Of a stretch of 5,694 bases of DNA, positions 1,070 to 1,447 are shown one piece after another. Every line of letters starts with the position of its first letter. Position 1 is the stretch's first letter. The notes beneath the pieces are model-generated. The model worked only from the letters and a program-made list of their open reading frames with translations, made no database searches and was not told where the DNA came from. The position numbers were made by a program, and so were the translations under genes. The stretch lies in IMG/VR virus record IMGVR_UViG_2698536559_000015; one strand, written 5' to 3'. The stretch comes from a virus. Its lineage: Duplodnaviria; Heunggongvirae; Uroviricota; Caudoviricetes.

Positions 1070-1447
1070 ATGACTGAGCGCATAGAATTTGTTTTGCCTT
1101 ACCCGCCGTCGGTGAACACCTACTGACGCCGTCGTGGTGGCGTATATTTTGTATCAAAAGCCGGTGAGCGTTATCGCCGGGATGTGGCGCTTATTGTTCG
1201 CCAGCAGCGACTGAAATTAAATCTGTCCGGTAGGTTGGCAATCAGGATTATTGCAGAGCCACCGGATAAGCGCCGCCGCGACCTGGACAATATCCTGAAG
1301 GCACCGCTGGATGCGCTGACACATGCAGGACTGCTTATCGACGATGAGCAGTTTGACGAAATCAATATAGTGCGCGGTTTGCCTGTTCCTGGTGGGCGAC
1401 TGGGCGTGAATATTTTCGTAATAAGAGGTAGTAATGATGGTGCGTGA
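1070..1447 (+). pseudogene. rusA: rusA-like Holliday junction resolvase, interrupted by an in-frame TGA at 1124-1126 (codon 19)
   Basis: ATG 1070 gives MTERIEFVLPYPPSVNTY, then TGA, then the same frame continues RRRGGVYFVSKAGERYRRDVALIVRQQ...DKRRRDLDNILKAPLDALTHAGLLIDDEQ... to TGA 1445-1447. The N-terminal LPxPPS motif and the acidic DLDN...DDEQ region match RusA as I recall it. The stop aligns with a Tyr/Trp position, so a single-base change could have created it. Confidence 0.7.

Follow-up and report, generated by a model that had tools for sequence, protein, structure and literature searches.

A probable loss-of-function nonsense allele (W19*) of rusA in an Escherichia coli lambdoid prophage

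The closest described counterparts of the gene analysed here are RusA of the Escherichia coli K-12 prophage DLP12 (PDB 1Q8R and 2H8C) and RusA of phage 82. In K-12 RusA the residues R69, D70, D72, K76 and D91 are needed for catalysis or DNA binding, with catalytic roles for Asp70, Asp72, Asp91 and Lys76 and a DNA-binding role for Arg69, as given in PMC10956419 after Bolt et al. 1999, 2000. The family is characterised by dimeric, Mg2+-dependent cleavage of Holliday junctions and by the ability to suppress ruv mutants. The K-12 gene stays transcriptionally silent unless IS2 or IS10 has inserted upstream of it (PMC10956419). The rusA gene described below belongs to the same family (PF05866), lies at the same lambdoid place just upstream of the antiterminator gene Q and conserves all five of these residues.

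We analysed a stretch of 5,694 nucleotides (hereafter the window), which belongs to a lambdoid prophage of Escherichia coli. In a Megablast search of complete E. coli genomes, window positions 1-3838 matched prophage regions at up to 98% identity, and these matches are annotated in the order DUF968, RusA endonuclease, antiterminator Q, three reverse-strand genes and tRNA genes. In the database sources, the proteins of this module are assigned to E. coli or Escherichia. The rusA frame (Table 1) starts at ATG 1070 and comprises 125 codons plus a stop when codon 19 is read as Trp. Its first 18 codons (MTERIEFVLPYPPSVNTY) carry the conserved RusA N-terminal motif and are followed by the TGA at 1124-1126 and by 106 sense codons in the same frame that lead to the natural TGA at 1445-1447. 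The sequence and its translation thus confirm the layout described in the earlier note, namely one frame with the N-terminal motif, an internal TGA and a long open remainder that includes the catalytic region. The uninterrupted frame of a RusA protein of about 120 amino acids is therefore broken at codon 19.

With Trp19 restored, the translation scored 58.5 bits against the Pfam RusA profile PF05866 (cut-off 22.8 bits) and aligned to E. coli K-12 RusA (1Q8R) without gaps (E 6e-23, residues 7-115 to 6-114); 2H8C was matched as well. Because of the Pfam score, the 1Q8R match and the conserved catalytic residues, the interval is a true rusA with an interruption and not a chance open reading frame. 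Under standard decoding the copy in the window would be the remnant of a RusA-family gene and a non-functional member of that family.

Table 1. Features of the window and of the structural model used for comparison (nucleotide positions refer to the window)
Feature	Coordinates	Strand	Basis
DUF968/HNH-type nuclease gene (ydfU-like), intact	14..1069	+	PF06147 E 3.5e-64; HNHc_6 E 1.5e-07; phrog_96 HNH endonuclease
RusA-family Holliday-junction resolvase gene, probable pseudogene	1070..1447	+	Pfam PF05866 match; K-12 RusA match; position between DUF968/HNH gene and Q
18 codons before the stop, MTERIEFVLPYPPSVNTY	1070..1123	+	translation; only strand 1 and the PPxxNxY motif covered
Premature TGA, codon 19	1124..1126	+	G>A transition at 1126; ancestral TGG (Trp)
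Residual 87-aa ORF, GTG start at codon 39	1184..1447	+	gene calls in some assemblies; Pfam RusA 33.9 bits
Catalytic region 3' of the stop, intact	1277..1345	+	Arg70, Asp71, Asp73, Lys77 and Asp92 correspond to K-12 R69, D70, D72, K76 and D91
Catalytic codons	Asp71 1280-1282; Asp73 1286-1288; Lys77 1298-1300; Asp92 1343-1345	+	alignment to K-12 RusA
Antiterminator Q gene, intact	1434..1805	+	PF06530 E 5e-52; annotated start 1434 or 1437
tRNA cluster	3686-3926	+	CAT, Lys-TTT, Arg-TCT
terB pseudogene (TerB family)	4099-4531	+	comparison with intact 143-aa terB of E. coli E2
Model strand	residues 4-9		AlphaFold2, P0032
Model short helix	residues 15-18		AlphaFold2, P0032
Model beta-hairpin	residues 19-22 and 25-28		AlphaFold2, P0032
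Model helix 1	residues 30-46		AlphaFold2, P0032
Model strand	residues 56-62		AlphaFold2, P0032
Model catalytic helix	residues 72-85		AlphaFold2, P0032
Model strand	residues 95-102		AlphaFold2, P0032
Model strand	residues 111-117		AlphaFold2, P0032

Codon 19 is TGG in all six aligned intact rusA alleles from complete E. coli genomes and TGA in the window. An intact allele of E. albertii (protein P0054, GCA_012092255.1) is identical to the window over the 88 bases from 1081 to 1168 except for its TGG, and with this allele included the intact relatives with TGG at codon 19 number seven. Our protein search listed 149 homologues, of which 110 cover the codon-19 column; among these matches Trp is found in 107 and Cys in none. 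Trp19 of the window protein aligns with the aromatic Tyr18 of K-12 RusA. Since intact relatives have TGG and Trp is nearly invariant in the homologues, the lesion is a single G>A transition at 1126 that changed TGG to TGA. The comparison with rusA alleles of related prophages, proposed in the earlier note as a check, therefore returned TGG in every intact allele aligned.

At the DNA level the nearest intact alleles are those of E. coli AMSHJX01 (WP_053897382.1, 96%) and of E. albertii GCA_012092255.1 (about 94%). Like the window, both have DUF968 upstream, an antiterminator gene downstream and the same N-terminal sequence; unlike the window, both have TGG at codon 19. Codons 24-25 of the window are GGC GTA (Gly24-Val25), which is unusual, as most alleles encode Ser-Thr or Asn-Thr at this place and the aligned E. 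coli alleles have AGT ACA or AGC ACA. This rare pair is common to the window and the E. albertii allele; we rejected the idea that it reflects drift after pseudogenisation, because the intact E. albertii allele has identical codons. Unlike the window, the E. albertii allele has a different rusA 3' end and a Q of the PF06323 type (PF06530 in the window), which shows mosaic recombination inside or adjoining rusA. In the E. albertii locus (L020, positions 2501-3549) the closest intact N-terminal allele is joined to this other 3' end and to PF06323, which points to a recombination breakpoint inside rusA, around window position 1340.

Through exact-sequence look-ups of the neighbouring DUF968 protein and of the residual 87-aa ORF we retrieved 13 loci, and codon 19 is TGA in all of them. 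They come from at least 11 datasets, some of which may derive from related isolates: the complete chromosome CP117556.1, three other isolate assemblies (BJDB01000013.1, BJCV01000129.1 and DBKJRJ010000039.1), four read-run assemblies (DRR170631, DRR162437, SRR9969839 and SRR22388765) and three metagenome assemblies (ERZ27259789, ERZ27259796 and ERZ27259799). The isolate genome accessions among them are GCA_028622215.1, GCA_005404405.1, GCA_005403705.1 and GCA_052859705.1, and contig DBKJRJ010000039.1 of the last matches the window with 100% identity. The 13 loci fall into three haplotypes that differ at 1306 (G/A) and 1078 (G/A); both changes are synonymous, and intact relatives likewise have A at 1306. 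No further disabling mutation in rusA was found in any of the 13 copies. The loci stand in at least three flanking arrangements: CP117556.1 has an IS-riddled flank, BJDB01 a cro/ydaT/replication module, and the contig of the window itself an Ead/Ea22 module plus a different module after 3838.

These data bear on the suggestion in the earlier note that the TGA might be a sequencing error, with TGG as the true codon and the A at 1126 as an artefact of one assembly. Single-base substitutions are the commonest kind of error and the window derives from a short contig (11.7 kb) of a third-party assembly, but the identical TGA occurs in a complete chromosome and in isolate, read-run and metagenome assemblies, and its copies span three haplotypes and different flanks. 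With TGA in every one of the 13 loci, a one-off sequencing error is excluded, and as an explanation it has next to no likelihood left; the claim did not survive the comparison across the datasets, which number at least 11 and are independent. The TGA allele is instead inherited and now occurs in several prophage mosaics, into which it has spread.

The allele is rare in larger collections. The exact repaired RusA protein was not found in a collection of 15 billion proteins, and no rusA stretch above 96.3% identity was found in RefSeq complete E. coli genomes, so none of the latter holds the TGA allele. A degenerate 29-mer over codons 13-22 with TGA had no match in IMG/VR or in species-representative genomes, whereas the same 29-mer with TGG matched at least 120 IMG/VR contigs. 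A pattern that allowed any base (N) as third letter of codon 19, and thus TGG or TGA, also had no match in species-representative genomes. As neither scan of these genomes gave a match, the representative genome of the host species lacks this module. The phage collection contained only rusA alleles of at most 88% identity, all annotated as intact, and no sequenced virion with the TGA allele was found in it. Of the 120 TGG copies listed from IMG/VR, four ran off the end of the locus; a stop was reached in the other 116, of which two are truncated further downstream. Among these listed matches, a few per cent are thus rusA remnants as a background, and the W19 lesion is rare and lineage-restricted.

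The annotation of the interval varies. Two NCBI assemblies have no protein called across rusA, as expected if the annotation pipeline treats the gene as a pseudogene. Other assemblies call the 87-aa fragment as a "hypothetical protein" (GAB5140301.1), and its cluster also contains "RusA family ... partial" entries. Another 87-aa fragment, P0124, belongs to a different allele and was considered as a second independent N-terminal lesion. It was rejected as a contig-end artefact: positions 1-40 of its metagenome contig (L021, ENA ERZ27280550 k141_91738) start with Illumina adapter sequence (…ACACTCTTTCCCTACACGACGCTCTTCCGATCT), which gives rise to a spurious 87-aa "RusA" ORF. Among the short RusA entries in the databases, P0124 alone was traced to its contig.

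Normal decoding from ATG 1070 yields a peptide of 18 residues. The only in-frame restart is GTG 1184, and the earlier note was right that a start past the stop loses the conserved N-terminus. We compared the predicted products with an AlphaFold2 model of the close intact homologue P0032 (89% identical; mean pLDDT 80, pTM 0.76; Table 1). The 87-aa product of GTG 1184 is without residues 1-38, and in the model it is thus without strand 1, the beta-hairpin at 19-28 and the first third to half of helix 1. Eleven invariant or near-invariant residues are missing from it (P10, P12, T17, Y18, W19, R20, G23, Y26, G32, Y35 and R36). Because strand 1, the hairpin and helix 1 are split or absent, both the peptide and the 87-aa product are predicted to be unable to form the RusA fold and to be inactive.

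That re-initiation at GTG 1184 nonetheless makes a truncated yet functional RusA core is very improbable. The 87-aa ORF is open, is called by gene finders, contains Asp71, Asp73, Lys77 and Asp92, and on its own scores above the Pfam RusA threshold. However, GTG 1184 has no Shine-Dalgarno-like sequence ahead of it, lies 58 nt beyond the codon-19 stop and gives a product that misses the N-terminal elements and the eleven residues named above; one other 87-aa fragment from the protein search, P0124, which was traced to its contig, proved to be an artefact.

The earlier note had also named a recoded stop as a less likely option, and for this we found no support. Programmed recoding, with UGA as selenocysteine or read by a dedicated suppressor tRNA, could draw on the selenocysteine machinery that E. 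coli possesses and on the prophage's own tRNA genes. The three tRNAs whose genes ARAGORN detected in the window have the anticodons CAT, TTT and TCT; none of them reads UGA and none is a suppressor tRNA with anticodon UCA. The Rfam scan (E<=1) found neither a SECIS element nor any other Rfam family near the codon-19 TGA, and the minimum free energy fold of the 81 nt around and after the stop (1115-1195) is no better than that of shuffled sequences (z = -0.36). The sequence 3' of the TGA is the same as in intact TGG alleles, so no specialised recoding signal has evolved there. The UGA itself is not conserved, as seen from the Trp in 107 of the 110 homologues listed, which never have Cys at this column, and from the IMG/VR counts of zero TGA and at least 120 TGG. 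TGA also terminates rusA, Q, terB and DUF3927 normally in the window, so the standard code applies and an alternative genetic code was rejected. With these results, programmed recoding carries almost no weight.

A stop that is merely leaky deserves somewhat more credit, and we consider it unlikely rather than negligible. Here low-frequency read-through of UGA19 by the near-cognate tRNA-Trp would yield exactly wild-type RusA, since the ancestral codon was Trp, and the allele would be a hypomorph and not a null, perhaps retained because a trace of nuclease is needed or tolerated. The +4 base after the UGA is C, which is reportedly the weakest context for UGA termination, a result ascribed to Poole et al. 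in 1995. A 2024 study does not single out C after UGA; it describes TGA as the most error-prone stop of E. coli, with Trp as the main replacement, and gives context-dependent reporter read-through between below 1% and several per cent for K-12, a strain with a weak RF2 (PMC11126739). All 13 copies keep the ORF past the stop intact, neither of the two later substitutions alters an amino acid, and the allele persists in several prophage mosaics.

Against this, the site is indistinguishable from a random TGG>TGA change, with downstream sequence as in TGG alleles and no predicted stimulatory structure, and the TGA form is rare (none against at least 120 TGG in IMG/VR, and none in RefSeq complete E. 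coli genomes, where identity reaches at most 96.3%). The high read-through figures come from K-12 with its weak RF2 (PMC11126739), and termination at UGA is more efficient in natural isolates; a pair of synonymous changes does not amount to evidence of selection. The stronger version, a "self-correcting" leaky stop at UGA-C that supplies trace wild-type RusA in an attenuated state kept by selection, is a little less likely still. If true, it would explain the undamaged downstream frame in all 13 copies and the spread of the allele across mosaics.

The neighbouring genes are undamaged. The TAA of the DUF968 gene directly abuts the rusA ATG, and the order DUF968, rusA, Q is that of the intact relatives, with rusA in the nin-like position just upstream of Q. 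The start of Q (ATG 1434 or 1437) overlaps the 3' end of rusA by 11-14 nt, so the two genes may be translationally coupled in intact phages. In the TGA allele the 307 nt from 1127 to 1433 would remain untranslated. This segment is G-rich (30% G, 22% C) with no C>G region that stands out, and AAGAGG at 1423-1428 provides Q with its own good Shine-Dalgarno sequence; for these two reasons strong Rho-dependent polarity on Q would not be expected, on a heuristic basis that is indecisive.

A weak terminator-like hairpin was noticed at 1126-1143 on the plus strand (ACGCCGT-CGTG-GTGGCGT), with a T-rich tail (ATATTTTGTA) to 1153, and it begins at the mutated base. It has seven pairs, two of them G-U, differs from the predicted minimum free energy structure and depends on the rare GGC-GTA codons 24-25. 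The same hairpin, with G replacing A, is present in the intact E. albertii allele. As a terminator it was set aside, being weak, off the predicted fold and also present in that intact allele.

Taken together, it is very likely that the window carries a loss-of-function nonsense allele (W19*) of an E. coli lambdoid-prophage rusA. The first option of the earlier note, a nonsense-mutation pseudogene, is thus the one supported, with TGG>TGA at a near-invariant Trp. One G>A change at 1126 turned the conserved Trp19 codon into TGA, and ribosomes starting at ATG 1070 would stop after 18 residues, leaving little or no RusA resolvase. As the rest of rusA is undamaged, the mutation is probably fairly recent. 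The position of rusA in the nin-like region of lambdoid phages, which is dispensable and in lambda is not needed for lytic growth, would make the mutation tolerable. Further grounds for tolerance may be the RuvABC of the host and the HNH-type nuclease gene next door. K-12's own rusA is normally silent (PMC10956419). The data show the mutation, its ancestral state, its occurrence in many datasets and the lack of recoding signals; from them we infer that RusA activity is lost, that this loss is neutral and that it has little polar effect on Q.

Some findings speak against a pseudogene: none of the 13 copies has gained a second disabling mutation, and only two polymorphisms have arisen since the copies split, both of them synonymous. 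The latter could hint at continued constraint, although two sites have no statistical weight and 1306A occurs in intact relatives too. Some wild-type RusA could still arise, because UGA is the stop at which E. coli termination is leakiest, with Trp inserted in most misreadings (PMC11126739), and the term pseudogene may be too strong if very low RusA levels suffice. We nevertheless regard the W19* change as a commonplace loss of function in a prophage gene that is dispensable, and in a gene family that is well known.

The wider prophage setting is mosaic. Window positions 1-3838 form one travelling module that is 99.9% identical in CP117556.1, BJDB01 and DRR170631, and this rusA-bearing module still moves between phage mosaics. 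Beyond 3838 a different prophage module follows, with tRNA-Arg, TerB, DUF3927 and DUF1737; the mosaic recombination junction (3838/3839) lies exactly at the 3' end of tRNA-Lys. The tRNA with anticodon CAT is called Met by ARAGORN, and PGAP annotates its homologue as Ile (lysidine type). The third tRNA varies among relatives (Thr and Gly in strain AF20, Arg in the window).

The terB gene is damaged as well. It has one extra base (+1 frameshift) in the A-run at about 4116-4124, near the gene start, so that the ATG frame stops at 4147-4149, and at 4235-4237 a TAG in frame replaces the GAG of E2; all that gene finders report is a C-terminal fragment of 48 aa (4385-4531). Since terB is decayed as well as rusA, the prophage is accumulating lesions in its accessory genes.

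Two further loci were noticed in the window. The STnc100 sRNA family was strongly matched at 4700-4886 on the plus strand (Rfam 114 bits, gathering score 47), with a GC-rich hairpin and a T8 run directly after it at 4911-4929. Its position upstream of the lysis genes suggests that the element could be a short late-promoter leader transcript (pR'/tR'-type) acted on by Q. Between Q and the tRNA cluster, three reverse-strand genes (1841-3389, minus strand) encode proteins of 143 or 132, 87 and 293 aa, and no Pfam domain was found in them. The 293-aa protein, which in other records bears the name "LAPAL motif-containing putative phage structural protein", has matches to PDC-S42 (E 4e-27), a candidate defence family of PADLOC, and to phrog_3243; the three genes may form a moron or defence cassette.

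The proper label for the interval is rusA pseudogene (W19*), in place of the 87-aa "RusA family" or "hypothetical" protein that some gene callers report. Beyond annotation its importance is small, as an example of the decay of an accessory recombination gene in resident lambdoid prophages. The site could also serve as a natural test case of UGA-to-Trp read-through that restores the native protein, with no sign of programming. In comparison with K-12 RusA, sequence identity is only moderate, and the window gene has a TGA at codon 19 and gives no full-length protein by normal decoding, whereas the K-12 frame is intact. The two genes are therefore silenced differently, K-12 rusA being transcriptionally silent with an intact frame and the window gene being interrupted by its TGA. 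The window gene resembles other decayed genes of cryptic or ageing lambdoid prophages, in which accessory genes carry point nonsense or frameshift mutations, and it differs from them in one small peculiarity, namely that its UGA stands at a Trp codon, where accidental read-through restores the native residue.
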